Notes: generated by a model not told the origin, from the letters alone. 64,000 nt of DNA from an uncultured delta proteobacterium (GCA_963760795.1 CAVXEP010000034.1:1-64000), one strand, 5' to 3'; shown: positions 21,952 through 57,921, counted from the first letter of the stretch. Translations and numbers: made by a program.

Positions 21952-22560
21952 CTATTGCGCCGAAGCGGCGAAACTTGGACGGGTTTTCAAACGGGCGATC
22001 CAGGCGACGGTGCTCTTATACTTGACCGGATCGACAGGAATGCCGAAGCGGTCGAGCAGTTCGATGTTAGCCATGAAGGCAACGTCCGCCAGGCTGAACG
22101 CGCCGGCGAGGTAGTCCTTGCCTTTAAGTTCTACTTCGGTGCGATCGAAGGCCTTGGTGATCTCGGCTTTGGCATTGTCGATCCGCTGCGCATCGCGCTC
22201 GGCTTCGGGCTTGCGGCTCTCCTGGATGATATGAACGAAGTAAGGATTGAAATGCGAGTCGCGAAAGTCTTCCATCATGCGCGCCCGCGCCCGCCCTTCC
22301 GAATCCCTCGGCATGAGCGGTGGATAGGGATACTCATCGTCGAGATATTCATTGATGACCGTCGAATCATAAACCACGAAACCTTCGTCATCTAACGCTG
22401 GGATTTGACCGAAAGGATGAACTTTGAGGTAGTCTGGGTTCTTTTGTTCCCGTTTGCTGAGGTCGACGTTGATCCGCTCGAATTCGAGGCCCTTCTCTAG
22501 CAGTGCAATTCTAACCTTGCGCGAGTTGGTCGACGGCGGAAACGTGTACAGCTTGATCAT
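21952..22560 (-). CDS. Glutathione S-transferase
   Basis: STNSRKVRIAL.EKG, HPFGQIPAL, YDSTVINEYL, YLAGAFSLAD. RBS AAGGAGG. Confidence 0.92.
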   Translation of the reverse strand: MIKLYTFPPSTNSRKVRIALLEKGLEFERINVDLSKREQKNPDYLKVHPFGQIPALDDEGFVVYDSTVINEYLDDEYPYPPLMPRDSEGRARARMMEDFRDSHFNPYFVHIIQESRKPEAERDAQRIDNAKAEITKAFDRTEVELKGKDYLAGAFSLADVAFMANIELLDRFGIPVDPVKYKSTVAWIARLKTRPSFAASAQ

Positions 22561-22698
22561 TGACAGCAACCTCCTTAAACTTCACAACAAGCGATATATT
22601 AGCACAACGTTGTAATAAGTGGAGCGTTTTTTTCATTTTCTCGGGTAAAATACAACTTATTTTCGAGATAACCGGGTTCTCACTTCCCAGAGATAGCG

Positions 22699-24557
22699 CT
22701 AGCGCCGGGAACCTAGGGTAGTTTTGAGCGCGCTGGTTGCATTACTTCTTCGAACGATGATGGTGACTTGATCGGCAGGTTTATACGCGCCGAGTGTGTC
22801 GGTGAGATCCTCAATATTGCTGATTTTTTTATCGGCTAGTTGAATGATTATATCACCTTCAAGTAAACCTGCCGCCGCGGCTGGGCTGCCAGGCGCGACG
22901 CCTGCGAGCAGCACGCCATCGATACTGTGGCTGTATTCGGGAATGACTCCCAGATAAACGCTGCCAACCCGCCGCTCGCCGCTCGCAGTTGATGGCGGTC
23001 GCCCCGGCAGGCTGGCGAAGGCCGGGGATTCCGGCAATGCCGCAATCGCCAAGGCCGAGCCGAGTACGAGGTCGCCAATGCGCGCCATGCCGGCGTAGTT
23101 AAGTTTGTCCCAAGTATCTCCCGGGCGATGGTAGTCCGTGTGGCTGCCGGTAAAGAAATGCAGCACGGGAATCTGTTTGTTGTAAAACGACAGGTGATCG
23201 CTGGGGCCGACGCCGTCAGGCTGGTTGGTTTGTAATCCCAGCTGCTTGGCGCCGGCGCCGACGATGGCGTCAAATGGCGGCGACGAGCGGATGCCGAATA
23301 CGGTGACGCGGTCTTCGCGCAGCCGGCCGACCATGTCCAAGTTAATCATGGATTTTATCGCACCGATCTGCGGCCACTTGGCAACAAAGTGGCGCGAGCC
23401 ATGCAGCCCCAATTCCTCGGCCGAAAAAGCGACGAAGACGATGCCACGCGTCGGCTTGGGCTCGATCTGGCTTAGCCGGCGCGCCAGCTGGAGCAGCACT
23501 GCCGTGCCGGATGCGTTGTCGTCGGCACCGTGATGGATCAGCCCGGCGGTGCTTTGATCGCGGGTGCCGTAATGGCCGAGACCAAGGTGATCGTAGTGGG
23601 CGCCGATGACGATGTACTCGTTGTGAACGTTCGGGTCTTTGCCGGCAAGGATCGCGACGACGTTTTCGGCGCGCGCTCGGTCCTCTTCGAGGCTTACCTG
23701 TAGCGACAGTTTAGCTCCCGGCAGGGCCAGCGAAGCCGGCCGCTCGTCACGGTCGATTTTTTCCTTTAGATCTTTGAGTGAAAGTCCCAGAGCCGCGAAC
23801 CACTTGTCGGCGACTTGCCGTTTGACTTGCCCCGCCACCAGGCTGTTGCCGCTGCGCCACAGGCTGCTGCGCAGCGACATTAACTCCGTCTTGCCCTCGT
23901 TCCGGTTGTCCATGTCAACGAGTATCATGCCCGCGGCGCCATGTTCGCGGGCGTTGTTGGCCTTGGTGCGGAGCGCTGCGTGGATCGAGAAATCGGGAGA
24001 TTTTCTAAATGGGCTTTGACTATTTTTTGGCGGCGGCTCATAGCGCAGCACGACGACGATCTTGCCCTGCACGTCGATACCGGCGTAGTCGTCGTAGCCG
24101 TAATCTTTCGCGGTAATGCCGTAGCCGGCGAAGACCGCTTCACCTTCGACTTGGGCGGATGAAGAAAGCCCTAGGGGCAGCCAATCCTCGTGCAACCGTA
24201 GCGTAGGCTCCCGGCCGAGCGCCAAACTGCTAGGCTCTTTTACCTGCACGCCAACGGCGACGTCGAAGCTTTGCAGATAACTGTTGTTGTCCCCACCGGG
24301 AAGCAGTCCATACTTCGCAAATTCCGCCGCGATGTAATCCCGCGCCGTGGCGATGCCTGGTGTGCCAACGCCACGGCCGCTAAGGTCCGGTGCCGCCAAA
24401 AACTTGCCATGGGCCAGCAGCTCGTCCGCCGCCGTCGGTTCCTGGCCCGACAGCAGCCAAGGACGCGCGGCGAGGCTGACAAGCGCGCTAAAAAGACTAC
24501 GGCTATGACGATGATGATCGCGCGGCGGCGGGATAGGGACTGGCGACGGAAACGCAT
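22699..24557 (-). CDS. M28 family peptidase with PA and PDZ domains (frameshift in 24400-24470)
   Basis: GAHYDH, GADDNASG, SAEELG, NLDMVG, SDH, DYH, YLGVIP..GSPAAAAG. Signal-peptide-like N-terminus is in ORF 24240..24557. Confidence 0.88.
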
Positions 24558-24683
24558 AGGACTAATTCAAGCTAACATGTTTGCGGCGGGTTTGTCGCTA
24601 GTCTGGTCTCGAATTCGGAACTTTTGCGGCGGCAAATCCTGAAGTGTTATAAAAGTATTATCTATTGCTGGAGGAGATTGAAG

Positions 24684-24917
24684 ATGGCCAAGTCCGTTGT
24701 TGTCTATACTCTACCTGGCTGAGGCCCCTGTCACGCCGAGGTAGAGTTTCTATCTCAAAAGGGAGTCGAGTTCGTCGAGAAAAATCTCCGCGCCGACAAA
24801 GCAACGTTGAAGGAGTTCCTTGACTTAGGCTTTCAAAGTGCGCCGGTGACGATTATAGACGGCCAGTCTGTGGTGGGTTTCGACCAAGAAAAGATCATGG
24901 AGCTGCTCGGATTGTAA
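24684..24917 (+). CDS. Glutaredoxin/NrdH-like selenoprotein (UxxC; in-frame TGA at 24720-24722)
   Basis: GGAGGAG RBS, then ATG...MAKSVVVYTLPG-U-GPCHAEVEFLSQKGVEFVEKNLRADKATLKEFLDLGFQSAPVTIIDGQSVVGFDQEKIMELLGL*. TGA sits exactly at the first Cys of the CxxC. Absent from the ORF track. Confidence 0.85.
24725..24763 (+). promoter_or_regulatory. Putative bacterial SECIS element
   Basis: Stem GAGGTAGA/TCTATCTC (24738-24756) with G-led apical loop GTT starting 23 nt after the UGA; lower pairing CCCT/AGGG. Confidence 0.65.
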
Positions 24918-25017
24918 ATAATTAGACCGATCGAATGGCGGCGCAATTTGGGTGGGATTGTCGCGGCCTGTCGATGGCCGTATTAATATGAATCATCCAA
25001 CGAAAAAGTTGAAAAGT

Positions 25018-25719
25018 TTATCTTACCTGCGACTTCCACCCGGAGGAGCTGAGCATTTTGCCGGTGACATTCTTGGCTTCGTCTGAAGCCAAGTAGACGA
25101 ATACGTCGGTTACCGATTCCGGTTTGCTGCCGTTGAAACCGGTGAGTTTCGTCGCCACGTAACCGGGCTCTACAGAATTGACCCGAATATTCGACGAGCG
25201 CGCTTCGGCAGCCAGGGTCTGCGAGAACCCTTCCAAACCCCACTTGGAAGTAGCGTAGGCGAGGAAATTGGCGTAGGCGCCGCGGCCGATCATCGACGAG
25301 ACATTGATGATGGATCCAGCCTTTTGTCGCATCATGATCGGCAGCACCGCTTGGGTGATCAGAAACGGCCCGCGCAAATTGACCGCGATGGTGTAGTCCC
25401 ATTTTCTTATGTCGAGCTCGATCATCGGCGCCGGCCGGGTCATGACGCCGGCGTTATTGACCAGCACGTCGATGCGGGCGAATCTCTTGAGCGCATTAGC
25501 AATGAAATCTTTGGCCGGCTCTTCCAGCGACACGTCGCAGCTCCAGCCTTCAGCGTCGACATTCATGGCGCGTAATTCTTTGACGGTTTGATCGAGCTCG
25601 GCGCCGGTGCGGGCGCACAGCGCGAGTTTGGCGCCCTCGCGGCCATAGTGCATGGCGATGGCTTTGCCGATGCCGCGGCCGCCGCCGGTGATCAGTGCGA
25701 CTTTGTCTTTGAGTTTCAT
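25018..25719 (-). CDS. Short-chain dehydrogenase/reductase
   Basis: TGGGRGIG, DVS, NNAG, NVSS, YATSK, IRVNSVEPG. Confidence 0.93.
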   Translation of the reverse strand: MKLKDKVALITGGGRGIGKAIAMHYGREGAKLALCARTGAELDQTVKELRAMNVDAEGWSCDVSLEEPAKDFIANALKRFARIDVLVNNAGVMTRPAPMIELDIRKWDYTIAVNLRGPFLITQAVLPIMMRQKAGSIINVSSMIGRGAYANFLAYATSKWGLEGFSQTLAAEARSSNIRVNSVEPGYVATKLTGFNGSKPESVTDVFVYLASDEAKNVTGKMLSSSGWKSQVR

Positions 25720-25730
25720 TGAGGAGCCTC

Positions 25731-25765
25731 GGAGTAATGGGGCAATGGAGTATTGGAGTAATGGA
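25731..25765. repeat. 8-nt-period intergenic repeat (GGAGTAAT)n
   Basis: ggagtaat ggggcaat ggagtatt ggagtaat gga. A related array lies at 54077-54112. Confidence 0.6.
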
Positions 25766-25867
25766 AAATCAGAATCTACATCGAAATAAAATGGAAGCCA
25801 ACCGTTTTGCGCTTGAGCAATTGGCCGGGAGGCGATAGGAAGAGAGCCGCGTAGGGAGGTGCGAATC

Positions 25868-26746
25868 ATGGACGTTCTCAGTATCACCGGTTACAACCGC
25901 AGGCCGCCGCAATTGGTGGCGGAGTACAAAGGATTTTTCGCCAAGGAGAATCTCGAAGTGCGCTTTCACGAGACCACCTACGCGCCGGATCACAACAAAG
26001 GCATGGCGGAAGGGAAGTGGGATTTTACCCTCAGCAGCGCCGACACGATGATCGCGCGCACGACCACCGATGGCACCGACTATATGCTGTTCATGCAGGC
26101 CGAAGAGGGATTGAGCGCCTACTTGATCGGCCAACCGGGTTACGAATCCTTCGACAAGCTGCGCGGCAAACTGCTGGCCGGCGATCCGGGCGACTCCAAT
26201 CTTGACCTGATCCGCAAGAAAATTCTCCGCAAGCATGGCATCGATGACACGGAATATGACATAGAAATCATTGGCAGCTCGCCGGTGCGCTTGGAGGCGT
26301 TTCTTCAACGCCGGGTGGTTGCGGCTATGCTGACGCCGCCGGCTTCCGATAAAGCCTTGGCCGCCGGTGGGGTTCTGCTCGCCAGCGGCGACGATTACGT
26401 GCCGGGCTGGCCGCTTACTTGTGGGTGGACGCTGCGGCCGTGGTTGTTGGATCATCGCACGCTGGTCGTGCGCTTCATTCGCGCTTGGGCGGCGGCGACG
26501 GATTGGTTGTTGCAAGCGGAGCATCGCGATGAAACCTTGCAGTTGTCGATGGACAAGGAAAAGCTTAATCGCGCCGCCGCCGAAATCGCCTATTCTAAAG
26601 TTGTCCCGCAGGCGCGCATCAATCCGGCGGCGATCCAAACCGTCATCGAGCTGCGCAAAGAAATGGGCGTCTATCAGCCGCCGTTCGATCCGCCGGCGCG
26701 ATTTTACGACGATAGCTACTGGCGCGAAGCGACGGGAACGCGGTAG
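25868..26746 (+). CDS. SsuA/THI5(NMT1)-like substrate-binding-fold protein, no signal peptide
   Basis: VAEYKGFFAKENLEV, LRGK.L, AAMLTPP, RFIRAW. RBS GGAGGT. Confidence 0.8.
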   Translation: MDVLSITGYNRRPPQLVAEYKGFFAKENLEVRFHETTYAPDHNKGMAEGKWDFTLSSADTMIARTTTDGTDYMLFMQAEEGLSAYLIGQPGYESFDKLRGKLLAGDPGDSNLDLIRKKILRKHGIDDTEYDIEIIGSSPVRLEAFLQRRVVAAMLTPPASDKALAAGGVLLASGDDYVPGWPLTCGWTLRPWLLDHRTLVVRFIRAWAAATDWLLQAEHRDETLQLSMDKEKLNRAAAEIAYSKVVPQARINPAAIQTVIELRKEMGVYQPPFDPPARFYDDSYWREATGTR

Positions 26747-27224: not shown

Positions 27225-27357
27225 AGTGACTCCTTGCCCGAGGGCATAACAAAAATAAGGTTATTTCTCAATGAAGCTTCGCGCCATGTCCTTGCGGCAG
27301 ACACTCGACAATGTAAAATGGTTATAATTTTAAAGATGATAAGGAGGCTTGAACGCC

Positions 27358-28377
27358 ATGTCAAAGCAGGAACTTGAAAGCGTAGCTCAAGCGATGGTCG
27401 CCAAGGGTAAGGGTATTCTTGCCGCCGACGAGAGCATGGGCACGATCAAAAGAAGGTTCGATAGCATCAAGATCGACTCCAACGAGAACAACCGCCGGGC
27501 TTACCGTGAGATGCTTTTCACCACCAAGGGTCTTGAGGAAGCGGTCAGCGGCGTGATCCTGTTCGACGAAACTCTGCGTACCGCGGCCAGCGATGGCACA
27601 CAGTTTTCCCAAGTTTTGTCGAAGAAGGGCATCATGCCGGGCATCAAGGTCGACAAAGGGCCGGTGGACATTCCCGGTTTTCCCGGCGAGACCGTTACCG
27701 AAGGCCTCGACGGCCTGCGCGCCCGGGTCAAAGAATATCGTGAGCTTGGCGCCAAGTTCGCCAAATGGCGCGCCGTGATTACCATCGGCGACGGCATCCC
27801 CACCTACACTTGCTTGCAGGCCAATGCCCACGCGTTGGCGCGCTACGCAGCGCTGTGCCAGGAAGGCGGCATCGTGCCGATCGTCGAGCCGGAAGTGTTG
27901 CTCGACGGCGGCCATACCATCGAGCGTTGCGAGGAAGTGACCCAGGAGACTTTGCGCATCACCTTCTCGGCGCTGTTGGAACAGCGGGTGCATCTGGAAG
28001 GCATGATTCTCAAGCCGAGCATGGTGGTATCCGGCAAAGACAACTCGCGCCAAGCCGGTGTCGACGAGGTCGCCGAGCGGACGATTCGTTGTCTCAAGCG
28101 CACCGTTCCCGGCGCCGTGCCGGGCATCGCTTTTCTCTCGGGCGGGCAAAGCGCCGTGAGCGCCACCGAACACCTGAACAAAATGAACCAGCTCGGCCCC
28201 CATCCTTGGCAGGTGAGTTTTTCCTACGCCAGGGCGCTGCAAGATCCGGCGCTCAAAGCTTGGCAAGGCGAGCCGGGCAATGTCGCGGCGGCGCAGAAGA
28301 TTTTTTACCATCGCGCCAAGATGAACAGCGCGGCGCGCACCGGCAGCTATACCAAGAAAATGGAAGAAGCAGCTTAG
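27358..28377 (+). CDS. fba: Class I fructose-bisphosphate aldolase
   Basis: KGILAADES, GIKVDKG, FAKWR, VPIVEPE, LKPSMV, FLSGGQS, SFSYARALQ. Confidence 0.96.
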   Translation: MSKQELESVAQAMVAKGKGILAADESMGTIKRRFDSIKIDSNENNRRAYREMLFTTKGLEEAVSGVILFDETLRTAASDGTQFSQVLSKKGIMPGIKVDKGPVDIPGFPGETVTEGLDGLRARVKEYRELGAKFAKWRAVITIGDGIPTYTCLQANAHALARYAALCQEGGIVPIVEPEVLLDGGHTIERCEEVTQETLRITFSALLEQRVHLEGMILKPSMVVSGKDNSRQAGVDEVAERTIRCLKRTVPGAVPGIAFLSGGQSAVSATEHLNKMNQLGPHPWQVSFSYARALQDPALKAWQGEPGNVAAAQKIFYHRAKMNSAARTGSYTKKMEEAA

Positions 28378-28465: not shown

Positions 28466-28549
28466 ATATAGTCGGTGCGGTGGCGCTATTCATGACGGCG
28501 ATGTCGTGTCCCGGCGAAGTAAACCCGCTAAGATAAGTTGGAGCCAAGC

Positions 28550-30796
28550 ATGTCCGAACCCGTACGTCGACTGATCATCGTGTCCAACCGTTTGCCTTTT
28601 AACGCAAGCGTTGAGGGCGGTGAGCTGGTTTTTCACGGGAGCGCAGGCGGCCTGGTCAGCGGTCTCGCCTCTTATCTTCATCCGCCCTCGCAAACCGCGA
28701 CTCCAGCCGGCGAATATCTCTGGGTCGGGTGGCCGGGGATCAGCGTCGACGATGCGCTCAAAGAACCGTTGACGAAAAAGGCGCACGAGGAATTTTCGTC
28801 CCATCCGGTTTTTCTCACCGAAGAACAGATGGAGCGGTTCTACCTGGGATTTTGCAATGCGACGATCTGGCCTCTGTTTCACTATTTTCCTACCTACACG
28901 TTGTACGAGCCGGCCTATTGGGAGCAGTACAAGCAAATCAATCAGTGTTTTTGCGACGCTCTGGAGAGCGTTCTCCGACCGGACGACGTGGTCTGGGTGC
29001 ACGACTATCATTTGATGTTGCTGCCGCGATTGCTGAAAGCGCGGCGTCCCAGGCTATCGGTTGGCTTTTTCCTGCACATTCCTTTTCCTTCACACGAGGT
29101 ATTTCGCCTTTTGCCGGTCGAGTGGCGCCGAGAAATCCTCGAAGGGCTGCTCGGCGCCGATCTAATCGGCTTTCACACCTATGAATATACCCGGCATTTC
29201 CAGCAGTCGGTTCTGAGAATATTGGGATACGAGCACCATTTCAGCCAAATTCTCACGTCGGACCACCCGGTCAAAGTCGACACGTTTCCCATGGGCATCG
29301 ATTTCGAGAAATTTTCGGCTGCGGCGGTGGACGGCGAAATTCAACGCGAACGTAAAGAGATGGAAAGCACGCTGTCCGGCTTCAAAGTCGTGTTGTCGGT
29401 GGATCGCTTGGATTATTCGAAGGGAATCTCGCACCGTCTCGAAGGCTTTGAGAGTTTTCTGGAGGCCTATCCTGAATACCACGGCAAAGTCGTCCTACTG
29501 ATGATCGTTGTGCCGTCGCGCATCGGCGTGCGTCAGTACGAGCGGATGAAACGGCAAATCGAAGAGCTGGTGGGCAAGATCAACGGGCGCTTCGGCGGAG
29601 TCGGCTGGACCCCGATCGTCTATCAGTACCGCAACGTGCCGTTTCCGTCTCTGGTCGCGCTTTATACGGCCTCGGACATTTGTCTGGTGACGCCTCTGCG
29701 CGACGGCATGAATCTGGTCGCGAAAGAATACGTCGCCACGCGGACCGACGGCAGCGGCGTCTTGGTGCTGAGTGAAATGGCCGGCTCGGCAAGTGAGCTG
29801 CCCGAAGCCATCGTCATCAATCCGAATAACCGGTACGAGATCGCTCAGGCGTTGAAGGATGCGCTGGAAACGCCGCTTGAAGAGCAGAAAAGACGCAACC
29901 GGATCATGCAAAACCGTCTGCGCCGCTACAACGTCACGCGCTGGGCGGGCGATTTTCTCGGCGCTCTGGCGGGCGCGCGCGAGATGCAGGATCGCATCGA
30001 GGCGAAACTACTACCGTTCGACGAACGGAACGAAATCATTGACGGCTATAAACTCAGTCGGCGCCGGGCGCTATTTCTCGACTACGATGGCACGCTGAGC
30101 CCATTGGTGCGGTTTCCTTTTATGGCGCGGCCGGACGAAAGCAAGATCAAGCTGCTCAGTTTCCTCGCGTCTGAACCGGGAAATCATGTCGTTATCATCA
30201 GTGGGCGCGACCGGCAGACTCTCGACAGCTGGTTCGGTTCTTTGTCCATCGGTCTGGTCGCCGAGCATGGGGCGTGGATCAAACAAGCGGGCCAGTCTTG
30301 GCAGCTCGTCAAGCCGCTCGCCAATGAATGGAAGGAGAAGCTCCTACCGATACTGGAAATCTACACCGACCGGCTGCCCGGCGCCTTTGTCGAAGACAAG
30401 GAAAATTCCGTGGCATGGCACTACCGGCCGGCCGATCCAGAACAGGGGGGAATCCTGGCCTCCGAGCTTGTCGATAATCTCGATAGCATGACTGCCAAGA
30501 CCGATCTCCAGGTGATTCAGGGCAGCAAAGTGGTCGAGATTCGGCATGCCGGCGTCGACAAAGGCAGCGCGGCGCTGCAATGGCTGGCAAAAAACGATTA
30601 CGATTTCATTCTTGCTGTCGGCGACGATGCGACGGACGAGGATTTGTTTCGCGCCATGCCCGCGTCCGCGGTGACTCTGCGAGTCGGTATCGCTGGCACA
30701 GACGCGCGTTATAATCTGCGCAACAGCGCGGAGGTCATTGGCTTGTTGCAAGCCTTCGCCGATGGCTCCAGTTTTCCCGCCGGCACCGCGCAATAA
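28550..30796 (+). CDS. otsAB: Bifunctional trehalose-6-phosphate synthase/phosphatase (OtsA-OtsB fusion)
   Basis: [43 protein letters not shown]; HAD domain [18 protein letters not shown]. Confidence 0.95.
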
Positions 30797-54098: not shown

Positions 54099-55049
54099 AT
54101 GGAGTACTGGAGAAGATCAAGTCATCAGTGGATCATTGTCCTGGTGGCGCTGCTTGCCGCCGTTTCGCTGGGTGATGCGGCGCAACCGACCAAAGTGCGC
54201 ATGTCCTACTCGAGCCGGAGTAACTCGAACACGCCGTTTGTCATCGCCTATCGCAAGGGCTTCTTTGCCGAGGAGGGGATGGACGTGGAGATGATCCAAG
54301 TCAATCCGCGGCTGGGCGCCACCGCGTTGCTAAACGGCGATATCGATTTTACCGCAACCTTCGGCAGCACGTTGCGCGGCATTGTCGGCGGCTTTCCGAT
54401 CAAGTTTGTCGCCGTGTCGGTGAAAAAGTCCGAACACTTCTTAATCGTCAGGCCGGAGATCAAAGAAATTCGCGATCTCAACGGCAAGAAACTCGGCGTC
54501 GCGACGCTGTTCGGTTCGGATCAAAAGGCCGCCGAAGAAATGATCCGCGCCAAAGGTTTTTCCCCGAACATGATCAAGCCGATCACGCTCGGCGAAGCGC
54601 CGGTGCGGGCGCAGGCGCTGCGCTCGGGGTTGGTCGATGCGATCTCGGTTTCCTCGCCCTTCGATTTGAGCCTGCAAACCGAGGGCTTTCGCGCCTTGGC
54701 CGGGCCCAAGGATATCGAAATTGCCTTGCCGACTTCCGGCATCGCGGTGGCCACCCGCTTGCTGCAACAGAATCCCCAGCATGTAAAACGAGTGGTGCGG
54801 GCGTTGATGAAGGCGCACCGTTTCGTTTTCGACAATCGCAAAGAAGTGGTGCCGCAGATGATCCGTTATCTGGAGCAGAGCCCTGAGGTGGCCGAACGGT
54901 CCTACGACCTGATAGTTAACTCGCTCAGCCGCAACGGCGAGATCACCGATCATGAGTGGGAAGTGCTGACCGAGAAAAAGAAGACGGCGGATGAGGTGCG
55001 CGATTTCACGCTGCTGCGCGAAGTGCAGAAAGAATTGAAGATTCGATGA
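54099..55049 (+). CDS. SsuA/THI5-like substrate-binding protein
   Basis: Signal peptide, KGFFAEEGMDVE, ALLNGDIDF, DLNGKKLGV, ALRSGLVDA, DFTLLREV. Confidence 0.85.
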   Translation: MEYWRRSSHQWIIVLVALLAAVSLGDAAQPTKVRMSYSSRSNSNTPFVIAYRKGFFAEEGMDVEMIQVNPRLGATALLNGDIDFTATFGSTLRGIVGGFPIKFVAVSVKKSEHFLIVRPEIKEIRDLNGKKLGVATLFGSDQKAAEEMIRAKGFSPNMIKPITLGEAPVRAQALRSGLVDAISVSSPFDLSLQTEGFRALAGPKDIEIALPTSGIAVATRLLQQNPQHVKRVVRALMKAHRFVFDNRKEVVPQMIRYLEQSPEVAERSYDLIVNSLSRNGEITDHEWEVLTEKKKTADEVRDFTLLREVQKELKIR

Positions 55050-55159
55050 CGGAGCACTAAGCGTTGGGACGTCTCCCAGCGTCAGCCTGGACAGGACGCC
55101 ACCTGACGCAATATTTCCGATGTTTTTGCCAGACGTACCGACCAGTCGCGAGGTGACAC

Positions 55160-55936
55160 ATGAACATTGCTATCGAACGAGGAAAAAAATATTCCTCACA
55201 GGAAGCCAAGGCGATCGTCGATGGACTCTATGCCAAAGTGCGCGAGCGCTGGGAGGCGCGGGTCAATCAAAAGCCGTTCATGCAGCAGTTGATGGCCGGC
55301 AGGCTGCCGCATAAAACCTTGCAGCTGTTTTTTCGCAACTGGGGCGCGTACACCATCGAGATCAACACGCTGACCGCTTGCACCTACCATCGCAATATCA
55401 CCTTTCTCAAGGTGAATCGCGATCTGATGGGGCCGATTGGCGAGAAGATCGCCGACGAGTTTATTCATCCCAAACCGCCGGGCCATTTTCTCGTCATGAT
55501 GGAAACGGCGAAAGCGCTGGGTCTCAGCGAAGACGAAGTTTTCACCTCCTCGATGCTGTCGGAATTTCGCGGCAAGATCGATTTCATGCGCACCATCGTT
55601 TACGAGGGTTCGGCGGCGGAGTGGTACTCGGCGGTGACCACCGAGGAGCAGATCGGCCACTGGTCGGCGGCCTGTTACCAAGCGCTAACCACGCATTATG
55701 GTTTTGACCGCGCCAAAGCCACTTATTTCGCCACTCATGTCGAAGCGGACTTGGAAGAGCATGAAGAGGGCATCATGGGCCACGCGAGTTTCAATCGCAT
55801 GGCGTTGCAGCGGCTGCTCGAAACCGGCATGGCTGAAGAGCGGCCGACCTATGGTTTGGAATACTGCGCCATGACTTCGGTGGACCTGCACGGCGCGATG
55901 CTGCGCTCGGCCATGGATGAAGCGGAGCGGGGGTAG
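55160..55936 (+). CDS. Heme-oxygenase-like diiron protein (TenA/PqqC/CADD-like), HDO-1
   Basis: All-helical. PFMQQLMAG.L, ADEF..H...GH, ALGL, TEE, YF.THVEADLEEH. Confidence 0.75.
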   Translation: MNIAIERGKKYSSQEAKAIVDGLYAKVRERWEARVNQKPFMQQLMAGRLPHKTLQLFFRNWGAYTIEINTLTACTYHRNITFLKVNRDLMGPIGEKIADEFIHPKPPGHFLVMMETAKALGLSEDEVFTSSMLSEFRGKIDFMRTIVYEGSAAEWYSAVTTEEQIGHWSAACYQALTTHYGFDRAKATYFATHVEADLEEHEEGIMGHASFNRMALQRLLETGMAEERPTYGLEYCAMTSVDLHGAMLRSAMDEAERG

Positions 55937-56045
55937 AAAGATTCACCACGGAGGGCACAGAAATCACAGAGTGAAGATTCGGATTCGTAATGTTGGCCGC
56001 AAAGAACGCAAAAGGCGCAAATGAAGAATACTTTCGGAGGTTTCT

Positions 56046-56970
56046 ATGAAAGAAGTTAGAGGCATGGTGTTACCGAGTCCGACGGTGTTTCGCGAGGATG
56101 GCAGGGTCGACGAGCCGCTCATGCGCGAGCTGACCGAATGGTTTGTCGCCAGCGGCGTACAGGCGTTTTTTATTCTGGGCTCCTACGGCCAGGGGGCGGC
56201 GATGCATCCGGAGGAGCGCAAAAACGTCGCCGAGATCGTGGTCCAACAAGTGAAGCATCGGGTGCCGGTGGTGGTGCATATCGGCGCGGTCGATCCCTTA
56301 TACCGCCATCGACCTCGGCCAGCATGCCAAGGCGATCGGTGCCGAGGCCATCGGCCATGTCGGGCCTTACTATTACGCTGACCGCTCGGAGTACGAGATT
56401 ATCGAGCATATTAAAATGGTCGACCGTGCCGTTGGCATGCCCATGCTCATCTACAACAACCCGCGCTATTCCGGCTATAACATTCAGCCCAACTTCATGG
56501 CGCGTCTGGTCGAAGCCGTGCCGAATATTTTCGGCGCCAAGCTGGCGATGGGCAGCGTCGATGAAGCGATGGCTTACATGAAGGCGGTCAAGGCACCTTT
56601 CGCGCCCTACGCGTTGGCGAGCAACTTGGTTGCAGCGATGTCGGTGGGCGTCGCCGGGACGATTAGTCCGCCCTTGGCGGTGACCCCGGAGATCGGCGTC
56701 GAGTTGGTCCGCGCCATCGACGCCGGCGACGCTGTGCGCGCCCTGGCGTTGCAGAAAGACGTGATCCGCATTCACGATATTTTCCTGCGTTTGGCCGGTC
56801 CATTTGGCCGGACTATCTATCGCGAAGCGATGCGGCTGCGCGGTTTCGACGTGAAAATGTATCCGCGTTGGCCGTCCAAGCCGCTCAGCCGCGAGGCCTA
56901 CGACGAGCTGCGCGACTTGCTCACCGAACTGAAAATTATCGCCGTGGCCGGTCAAGTGAGGAGTGCCTAG
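56046..56970 (+). CDS. DapA/NanA-family class I aldolase/lyase (frameshift near 56297)
   Basis: FREDGRVD, LGSYGQG, EER, RVPVVVHIG, GPYYY, LIYNNP, Schiff-base Lys in FGAKL. Confidence 0.82.
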
Positions 56971-56975
56971 GCGGC

Positions 56976-57921
56976 ATGAAGATAAACCGTCTGCTTGGGA
57001 TCGTTACTATCTTAAGTTTCGGCTCGCTTGCCGGCTCCGCGGCCCGCGCCGAAGAGCGTGTGCGGGTCGCGTTGTCGGTGCGCAACGTGGTCTTTCTGCC
57101 TTTTTACTACGCCAAAGCGCTGCGCATTTACGATAAGCATGGGCTCAACGTCGAGCTGATTCAGATGCGCAGCGATTTGCAGTTGGCGGGCTTGGTGTCT
57201 GGTGAAATCGACTTACACGCCATCGGTGGGCCCGGCGGGAACGGCCATCGCCAACTCGCTGCCGATCAAGGCGCTGGCAATACTCTACCGGGCACCGCTG
57301 TTTTCTCTCGTCAGCCCGGCGGGCACCGCCAACGCGAAAGAGTTGGAGGGTAAGAAAGTCGCGGTGTCGCGCATCGGCTCGGAAAGCCATCGTTATGGTT
57401 CGCTAATGATCGAGAGTGCCGGCGCCGACCCGAAGAAGGTGACCTTCATCCAGACCGGCAGCACGACGATCAGCCTGGCGGCGATTCAACAGGGAACCGT
57501 CAACGCGGCGGTATTGAGCCCGCCGTTTACCGGTATGATGGCGGAAAAAGGTTATAAAATTCTTGCTCGAAGCCGGTCGTTGGCCGAAGCGCCCTGGCTC
57601 GGTCTGGTCGCCAATCGCCAGAAGATAGACAAACAGCCGGAGCAGGTGCGCAACATGCTGCGCTCCATGCGCGATGTGGTGGCGGTGATGCGGCGCGACC
57701 GCGCCGGCGTGATTAGCTATATCGAGAAGGATTTCAAAGTGAGCACGGCCAACGCCACCGAATCCTACGAGGACATCATGGGCGTGACCATGGATAATTT
57801 AACCCTGCGCGACGAGCAGATCCAAAAATATCTCGACAATTCCTTGGCCCGCGGCGAAATCGGCAAACGGCTTATGGTCAATGAAATGTTCGATTTTTCG
57901 TTGCTGCGCAGTTTGAAATAG
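56976..57921 (+). CDS. SsuA/THI5-like substrate-binding protein (frameshift near 57212)
   Basis: Signal peptide, HGLNVELIQM, LVSGEID, LEGKKVAVS, AAVLSPP, FDFSLL. Confidence 0.82.

Follow-up and report, generated by a model that had tools for sequence, protein, structure and literature searches.

Can a glutaredoxin-like reading frame that is interrupted by a TGA at its catalytic position be a functional gene, and if so, what would the TGA encode? This question is raised by a locus in a 64,000-nucleotide stretch of DNA from an uncultured delta proteobacterium (GCA_963760795.1, CAVXEP010000034.1:1-64000; the whole stretch is hereafter called the window), where a reading made from the sequence alone had proposed a hidden selenoprotein gene. 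From the comparative and genomic evidence set out below, we conclude that the locus very probably is a working gene and encodes a selenoprotein glutaredoxin of 77 residues, whose UGA codon is predicted to be read as selenocysteine (Sec). The gene consists of an ATG at 24684, 12 sense codons, a TGA, a further 64 sense codons and a TAA at 24915-24917, and it is preceded by a GGAGGAG ribosome binding site; sequence and translation agree in this with the sequence-only reading (Table 1). That reading had also pointed to a gap in the track of open reading frames (ORFs), and our listing under translation table 11 indeed contains no ORF of at least 40 amino acids in the gene's frame.

When the TGA is translated as U, the 77-residue product reads MAKSVVVYTLPG-U-GPCHAEVEFLSQKG...SAPV...VVGFD..., with the motif PG-U-GPC at the interrupted position. 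The glutaredoxin fold claimed for it is borne out by a match to the Pfam family Glutaredoxin (PF00462; E = 1.7e-11, 44.6 bits against a cut-off of 22.9) that spans profile positions 1-60 of 60. The best sequence match in the PDB is 7c10 ('Glutaredoxin', E = 1.4e-18), which aligns without gaps over residues 1-77 of both proteins, with about 40 of the 77 residues identical as counted on the identity line of the alignment. From knowledge of the fold, we take the proline of S-A-P-V to be the cis-proline.

Conservation of the UGA codon

If the TGA is a genuine part of the gene, how widely is it kept? We searched 61 genomes in six frames, namely the organism's own genome and others of its genus, family, and order, and found a match in 59. 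A full-length best match was present in 53 genomes, and each of these contains exactly one TGA (53/53, or 51/51 when the unpublished genomes G004 and G035 are set aside). Loci were read from 50 of the 53 (G050, G058, and G059 were left out), including one from each of the two unpublished genomes (L037 from G004 and L045 from G035). The TGA is codon 13 in all 50 orthologous loci, which come from 11 genera in three families (48/48 without the unpublished genomes), and it is retained although identity drops to 57%. The surrounding motif is G-U-GPC in 34 loci and G-U-PPC in 16, and the codon for Cys16 is TGT in 39 and TGC in 11. Among the remaining genomes, G001 (65% complete) and G023 (97% complete) gave no match, G016, G022, and G024 contain only a distant paralogue, and the G032 match is a fragment, cut off where its contig ends, that includes the TGA. 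In the G020 copy, the Sec codon is masked by N.

Beyond the order, a scan of species representatives recovered nine sequences from other lineages, including five further phyla, with TGA in the same column. Their sources are metagenome-assembled genomes (MAGs) labelled Binatia, Rubrobacteraceae, Herpetosiphonaceae, 'Bacillati ANGP1', Armatimonadetes, Planctomycetaceae, and Clostridiaceae, together with Natronincola peptidivorans. Six further homologues carry TGC or TGT at this codon (L094, L096, and L098-L101, from two archaeal MAGs, a Bacillota MAG, Anabaena, and two Pseudomonadota), and the alignment of homologues thus pairs UGA with Cys codons at the catalytic position. In addition, residue 13 is Cys in P0010 and P0011, two metagenomic proteins that share 73-74% identity with the query. 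In a tree of 67 rows, built on only 77 columns and rooted arbitrarily at the midpoint, these two proteins fall inside the genus-level Sec clade (99/93) as sister to L029 (93/90), a placement that suggests replacement of Sec by Cys.

Two further patterns were seen among the Sec forms. The Sec-glutaredoxins from Rubrobacteraceae (L088), Herpetosiphonaceae (L089), and Planctomycetaceae (L092) are nested in the Binatia radiation (supports of 90/93, 86/83, and 95/81, respectively), and L088 and L089 have a 19-nucleotide hairpin identical to that of the window (see below) at a protein identity of only 55-59%. Horizontal transfer, binning error, and strong constraint are all possible explanations. 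Many congeners also contain a second, distant glutaredoxin-like match of 29-38% identity (for example G003:C6:335176-335394, G014:C6:281895-282119, and G025:C36:93566-93784), with one TGA inside a far longer open frame of 258-299 amino acids; this is possibly a fused selenoprotein with a glutaredoxin domain. No such second gene was found in the genome studied here at E <= 1e-5.

The TGA could nonetheless be a miscall of TGC or TGT, or a recent nonsense mutation, which would make the locus a Cys-glutaredoxin or a pseudogene. Assembly errors or strain differences do occur in this material. The selD gene of the genome contains an extra A (see below), and an intergenic A-run upstream of the gene, at window position 24634, is one A shorter in three of four run assemblies, reflecting either a strain difference or a homopolymer error. 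The copy in the congener G027 (L128, G027:C43:6560-7000, minus strand, on the same contig as L095) has two 1-nucleotide deletions and is either misassembled or decaying. Yet the errors observed are homopolymer indels and not substitutions (the sequence-only reading, too, had seen indels elsewhere in the window), and the damaged G027 copy keeps both the TGA and the hairpin. Moreover, TGA stands at codon 13 in 50 of 50 independently assembled genomes. It is also seen in Logan contigs from two DNA runs and two RNA-library runs of four studies, which show presence rather than transcription level or the absence of variants. Approximating the read check that had been proposed for position 24722, these four independent run assemblies show no other letter at 24720-24722; one of the RNA-library contigs is identical to the window over 24673-24845, while the other, from a relative, reads GGC TGA GGG CCT TGT. 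A miscall or recent mutation appears effectively refuted already by these comparisons, and we give it a vanishingly small chance.

Alternatively, the UGA could simply terminate translation, so that the product would be a short downstream ORF (58 amino acids, 'glutaredoxin 3') or a 12-residue peptide. Such short products are what the protein database holds: among the relatives listed, 108 of 120 are 58-63 amino acids long and cover only 74-75% of the query. In the window, however, codon 20 is GTA, which is not a start codon, the first in-frame start past the TGA is a TTG at codon 42, and, as stated above, no ORF of at least 40 amino acids is listed in this frame. Nor do the orthologues favor a start at residue 20, where GTG is found in 7 of the 50 loci (by row count) and AAA or AAG in 26, and which would cost the protein strand beta-1 and both active-site residues. 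Ahead of the UGA, by contrast, a Shine-Dalgarno core (GGAG, GAGG, or AGGA) lies 7-16 nucleotides before the start in 45 of the 50 loci, in upstream sequence that is otherwise divergent, and codons 2-12 keep their amino acids while each uses two to five synonymous codons. This conservation argues for a translation start upstream of the UGA, and termination at the UGA as the normal fate of this gene is very improbable. Instead, the sequence-only reading was correct that annotation misses or truncates the gene: the type is already known, and gene callers routinely truncate Sec-glutaredoxins in these uncultured soil bacteria. In the 12 database entries that are full-length, the residue printed at the Sec position is W in seven, Cys in two, and G, R, or L in one each.

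The hairpin downstream of the UGA

In the bacterial pathway as described in PMC13188914, SelB with Sec-tRNA(Sec) docks on a hairpin and inserts Sec at the UGA. Does the gene contain such a selenocysteine insertion sequence (SECIS)? The hairpin with a G-led loop that had been noticed past the UGA could be located exactly: GAGGTAGA and TCTATCTC form its stem and GTT its loop, with the hairpin starting 15 nucleotides, and the G-led loop 23 nucleotides, from the UGA. The same region also encodes E-V-E-F-L-S-Q.

Run on the 50 orthologues, RNAalifold gives precisely this hairpin as the consensus fold. In alignment A1, which holds 45 distinct rows, 99.7% of the 360 cells are standard pairs, whereas none of 500 shuffles reached the observed pairing or covariation score and slid registers gave 36-78%. 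Of the 45 rows, 24 have U-A at pair 23-33 and 21 have A-U, and both Watson-Crick and G-U pairing occur at pairs 22-34 and 24-32. At the level of codons, codon 20 changes from Val (GTA/GTG) to Lys (AAA/AAG), and the synonymous third base of Leu23 follows it (CTA in 24, CTT in 26) in 50 of 50 loci. Other synonymous sites in the stem are frozen, with GAG at codons 19 and 21 and TCT at the six-fold degenerate Ser24 in all 50, CAA in 49 of 50, and TTT in 33 of 34. Outside the stem, nearly all degenerate codons of the gene use two to six codons among the orthologues.

The pairing extends to a set of 28 sequences from several phyla, in which 94.2% of cells are paired and two pairs have changed on both sides (pair 20-36: A-U 23, C-G 1, U-A 1; pair 23-33: A-U 19, U-A 7, U-G 1). 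The unpaired cells number three per pair, consistent with register-shifted stems in three sequences (L090, L091, and L097), which when folded singly form hairpins of -15.7, -13.7, and -8.0 kcal/mol. All nine distant Sec forms have a local hairpin at the same offset (-8.0 to -15.7 kcal/mol), whereas five of the six Cys forms reach only -4.6 to -6.1 kcal/mol there and the sixth (-14.1 kcal/mol) folds elsewhere.

The limits for bacterial SECIS elements stated in PMC13188914 are a loop of 3-9 nucleotides, an upper stem of 4-16 base pairs, a G within the first two loop positions (mostly G, then G or U), a distance of 16-37 nucleotides between UGA and loop, and a minimum free energy (MFE) of at most -7.5 kcal/mol. 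The window hairpin falls within all of them, with a 3-nucleotide loop beginning G-U, a stem of 8 base pairs, a spacing of 23 nucleotides, and -8.7 kcal/mol for the hairpin alone, a value computed on the identical hairpin of L088. Like the SECIS elements of E. coli fdhF and fdnG, it lies inside the ORF directly after the UGA and presents G-U in its apical loop at a fixed distance. The E. coli elements have a larger apical loop and a bulged U; the loop in the window is far smaller (3 nucleotides, or 5 if the closing A-U opens), and no bulged U is evident. A longer lower stem, in which MFE pairs join approximately 24723-24729 to 24760-24767, was dropped, as its columns vary without matching changes when judged by eye in A1. 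By the pattern of its conservation and compensatory changes, the hairpin is a conserved, covarying in-ORF bacterial SECIS, to which SelB is predicted to bind.

Selenocysteine decoding in the genome

A SECIS would be of use only to an organism that decodes Sec. The genome to which the window belongs, as contig C34, measures 6.58 Mb in 35 contigs (G000; 88.9% complete), and it contains the Sec machinery, in line with the supposition of the sequence-only reading that the organism decodes Sec. The tRNA-Sec scores 76.7 bits against a gathering score of 47 and is called tRNA-SeC, with anticodon tca, by ARAGORN. A selA-selB-selD cluster lies on contig C11, with scores of 612, 410, and 379 bits, all over the curated cut-offs, although the assembled selD has a 1-nucleotide homopolymer frameshift (see below). 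SelD has a TGA of its own, at G-U-AAKLGP; when 21 genomes from the order were sampled, all 19 full-length SelD matches contained one TGA, one match was partial, and one 60%-complete genome gave no match. An open frame of 1069 amino acids on contig C10 (approximately 54203-57157; L124 and L125), which includes a single in-frame TGA, encodes the alpha subunit of a formate dehydrogenase of the FdnG type (898.5 bits with neighboring pieces), and by its sequence this appears to be a further selenoprotein gene of the genome.

Could the UGA be read as Trp, Gly, or Cys, through a reassigned code or near-cognate suppression, rather than as Sec? Trp or Gly is printed at the position in 8 of the 12 full-length database entries. 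But TGA is otherwise an ordinary stop in the window, where it ends 13 of the 39 stop-to-stop frames of at least 300 codons, about as often as TAA (14) and TAG (12). The fold has its catalytic Cys or Sec at this position, and a protein with Trp or Gly there would be inactive. Besides a complete, conserved Sec system, there are a hairpin of the SECIS type and two further genes for classical selenoproteins. Thus, insertion of a standard amino acid is highly improbable, and Sec is the predicted residue.

Several points weigh against a selenoprotein gene at this locus. First, a 56-nucleotide segment containing the hairpin folds with -15.6 kcal/mol, which is not exceptional (z = -0.91, with 36 of 200 shuffles folding as well); the folding energy being insignificant, we have placed weight on the comparative data. 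Those data have limits of their own: six of the eight pairs persist in L096, a Cys form, so that the peptide KEFLSQ may explain part of the palindrome, and the chief compensatory swap divides the genus from the rest, and hence reflects few evolutionary events among related sequences (perhaps two, if the 77-column tree is right). Second, a permissive Rfam scan of 24600-25000 gave no match up to E = 10, bacterial SECIS elements being poorly covered by its models. Third, every NCBIfam match of the protein scores below its cut-off (see below), so that its subfamily is not fixed. Fourth, that Sec enters the protein is something we infer from gene, hairpin, and machinery. Finally, the frameshift in selD, if real, would block selenophosphate synthesis in this strain.

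This last point leads to another alternative, in which the lineage has a true Sec gene but this strain makes no selenoprotein, reflecting incipient loss of the Sec trait. The break lies on the minus strand of C11 (L016, approximately 2385-2400), where the assembly reads AAAA and the congener L113, with the same codons, reads AAA. The extra A sits five codons before the Sec codon of selD and puts 'VRLTQSVK' and 'AAG-U-AAKLGP' in different frames; eight relatives (one of them from the unpublished G004) read through both in a single frame. However, this is one homopolymer base in a metagenome assembly of 35 contigs, similar to the A-run difference at 24634, and selA, selB, the tRNA-Sec, and the genes for the glutaredoxin and formate dehydrogenase all look intact. 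In the closest congener, G003, selD is matched without interruption over model positions 1-310. The extra A is probably a homopolymer assembly error, and a strain that has lost its selenoproteins is an improbable, if slightly less remote, explanation.

Relatives, neighborhood, and predicted function

Which known redoxin does the protein resemble most closely? PDB entry 7c10 is linked through its literature listing to an IUCrJ paper on glutaredoxin-1 (cGrx1) of Clostridium oremlandii (Alkaliphilus oremlandii OhILAs; Sec-to-Cys crystals 7c10, 7c12, and 7c13). According to PMC7642778, cGrx1 is natively a selenoprotein, and its motif is U(or C)PXC; it was crystallized with Cys in place of Sec and is proposed to be the reductant of the selenoprotein MsrA. 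Its mutants are named U13C/C16S in PMC4479559, and the U13/C16 numbering of our ORF is the same. The two proteins share their length class, U13 and C16, a U-x-x-C motif in the PF00462 fold, EFLS following the active site, and VVGFD close to the C-terminus, and a close clostridial relative (Natronincola, L093) has a TGA and a hairpin in the same columns as the window gene. They differ in the active site, which is U-P-H-C in cGrx1 but U-G-P-C here, with the G-P dipeptide of thioredoxin, and U-P-P-C in family f3. The hosts also differ, an anaerobic clostridium in one case and an uncultured Binatia-type soil bacterium in the other. While the partner of cGrx1 is a Sec-containing MsrA, the MsrA genes of our genome (four PF01625 matches at three loci, all elsewhere in the genome) contain no in-frame stop, and the 'tandem Sec use' of C. 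oremlandii is thus not applicable. The gene also resembles the Sec-glutaredoxins of selenoproteome surveys (Geobacter sulfurreducens, Alkaliphilus, and Moorella) in its UxxC motif, PF00462 domain, architecture, and Sec position, a likeness drawn from the survey listing.

The sequence-only reading had called the protein 'glutaredoxin/NrdH-like', of which the first part stands and NrdH proper does not. The best NCBIfam matches are all below curated cut-offs: TIGR02196 (YruB/Cp9) scores 61.4 bits against 88.55, and TIGR02194 (NrdH) 48.8 against 85.75. The same holds for the UXX-star models, although the matches cover most of each profile (NF041212, 39.7 against 66; NF041211, 28.3 against 100; NF041114, 18.4 against 72; NF047338, 23.5 against 97). 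After 7c10, the further structural relatives are BC3987 (3zij, a thioredoxin-like protein with C-P-P-C) and NrdH redoxins. With NrdH-redoxin, Cp9/YruB, and BC3987 (4fiw, 1r7h, and 3zij) the protein shares a glutaredoxin-like fold of about 9 kDa, a G-F near the C-terminus, and the [ST]-x3-C-x2-C feature, with T or S at residue 9 in all 50 orthologues; U-P-P-C of family f3 is the selenium analogue of the C-P-P-C of BC3987. This feature is described in PMC3720550, and the same source treats BC3987, Cp9/YruB, and NrdH as clients of thioredoxin-reductase-type enzymes. Those proteins use Cys, not Sec, and our gene differs from them further in its sub-cut-off scores, in lacking CVQC, and in having no nrdHIEF or peroxiredoxin/thioredoxin reductase operon nearby. 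We rejected NrdH-redoxin proper (TIGR02194) on its score, on U-G-P-C in place of C-[VM]-Q-C, and on the absence of nrdHIEF context. By these sequence comparisons, the selenoprotein Grx1 from C. oremlandii is a closer relative of the protein than NrdH proper is.

Table 1. Features of the predicted selenoprotein glutaredoxin gene and its neighbors in the window
Feature	Position	Strand	Remarks
Shine-Dalgarno GGAGGAG	24670..24676	+	7 nucleotides ahead of the ATG; counted from the sequence
Predicted selenoprotein glutaredoxin coding sequence	24684..24917	+	77 codons + TAA, with UGA13 read as Sec
Predicted Sec codon UGA (residue 13), putative nucleophile of U-G-P-C	24720..24722	+	Column shared by orthologues
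Putative resolving Cys16, codon TGT	24729..24731	+	Cys in 50/50 orthologues; matches C16 of C. oremlandii Grx1
Predicted in-ORF SECIS hairpin, 8-base-pair stem (24738-24745 / 24749-24756), apical loop GUU (24746-24748)	24738..24756	+	Orthologue consensus fold
S-A-P-V, residues 52-55, thioredoxin-fold loop	24837..24848	+	S-[TA]-P-V in 50/50 orthologues; aligned to A-V-P-V of 7c10
M28 peptidase with PDZ domain	22699-24399	minus	Upstream of the Sec-glutaredoxin gene
Glutathione S-transferase	21952-22569	minus	Upstream, 2 kb away
Alkaline phosphatase		minus	Upstream
Short-chain dehydrogenase	25018-25887		Downstream, convergent

Genes for ribonucleotide reductase, peroxiredoxin, MsrA, and thioredoxin reductase are absent from the neighborhood (Table 1), and a consensus scan of 24380-25100 returned no promoters and no terminators. 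Farther along the window, a single ORF of 752 amino acids (28538-30796, plus strand) joins trehalose-6-phosphate synthase (Glyco_transf_20) and trehalose-phosphatase domains and adjoins a class I fructose-bisphosphate aldolase gene (27349-28377). On the minus strand from 4906 to 2696, a gene for an FrsA-like alpha/beta-hydrolase fused to a LigA domain ends in TGA and is followed in-frame by the gene for the LigB catalytic subunit; the frame, which runs 272 codons past this TGA, was considered as a second TGA gene and rejected as two adjacent genes.

How would the protein be made, and how might it work? Translation would begin at the ATG, and SelB, tethered to the hairpin at 24738-24756, would bring Sec-tRNA(Sec) to the UGA at 24720, so that Sec13 is inserted and termination avoided. 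The product would be a small thioredoxin-fold oxidoreductase of the glutaredoxin/NrdH type with the active site T9-x3-U13-G-P-C16. From work on cGrx1 (PMC7642778, PMC4479559) and general glutaredoxin and thioredoxin chemistry, we infer a nucleophilic role for Sec13 and a resolving role for Cys16: the Sec13 selenolate would attack a disulfide or sulfenic acid of the substrate, and Cys16 would resolve the mixed selenenylsulfide. The resulting Se-S form could be re-reduced by glutathione, as has been proposed for cGrx1, or by an enzyme of the thioredoxin reductase type. Glutathione is plausibly available, as the genome contains a glutathione synthetase gene (gshB, 400.9 bits) and a GCS2-type glutamate-cysteine ligase gene (228.8 bits), in addition to the glutathione S-transferase gene near the locus, a gene content that is permissive rather than proof.

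A more speculative reading gives the second kind of reductant precedence. Based upon the U-G-P-C or U-P-P-C active site on a 9-kDa glutaredoxin fold, this clade could be a selenium-containing redoxin of the thioredoxin/NrdH type that is recycled by a thioredoxin-reductase-like enzyme and does not depend on glutathione. Based upon the nesting in Binatia of the Rubrobacteraceae, Herpetosiphonaceae, and Planctomycetaceae forms, two of them with an identical hairpin, the gene, self-contained and equipped with its own SECIS, could also be passing from one phylum of aerobic soil bacteria to another. We hold this combined proposal only tentatively and think it rather unlikely; if true, these proteins would be among the selenoproteins that are spread most widely in soil metagenomes and yet are mis-annotated systematically.

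What, then, does the locus add? Sec-glutaredoxin, with PF00462 and UxxC, is listed as a prokaryotic selenoprotein family in PMC1794560, PMC13188914, and PMC9312934, the first of which reported it in 2006 from Geobacter sulfurreducens, Alkaliphilus, and Moorella, and the finding leaves what is known of Sec decoding and of glutaredoxins unchanged. Any novelty may lie in lineage and breadth, that is, 53 of the 61 sampled genomes of one order together with MAGs of five other phyla. In the literature collection searched, we found no paper linking Binatota or Binatia with selenocysteine, although large supplementary survey tables, which lay outside that search, could list such genomes. The single Binatota paper among the results names selenocysteine in its references and nowhere else.

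The finding matters in several ways. It corrects a systematic annotation error, as most relatives in the protein collection searched are stored as 58-amino-acid fragments that have lost the active site, or else show W or G where Sec belongs. It offers a case of dual coding, in which seven codons specify helix residues and, at the same time, the predicted SelB-binding hairpin. It also indicates that an uncultured soil lineage, represented by MAGs labelled Candidatus Binatia or 'delta proteobacterium', uses Sec, with at least three predicted selenoprotein genes, for the glutaredoxin, SelD, and FdhA. Since the lineage appears to use Sec, and the literature searched gave no link between Sec and these bacteria, selenium supply may matter when they are brought into cultivation.

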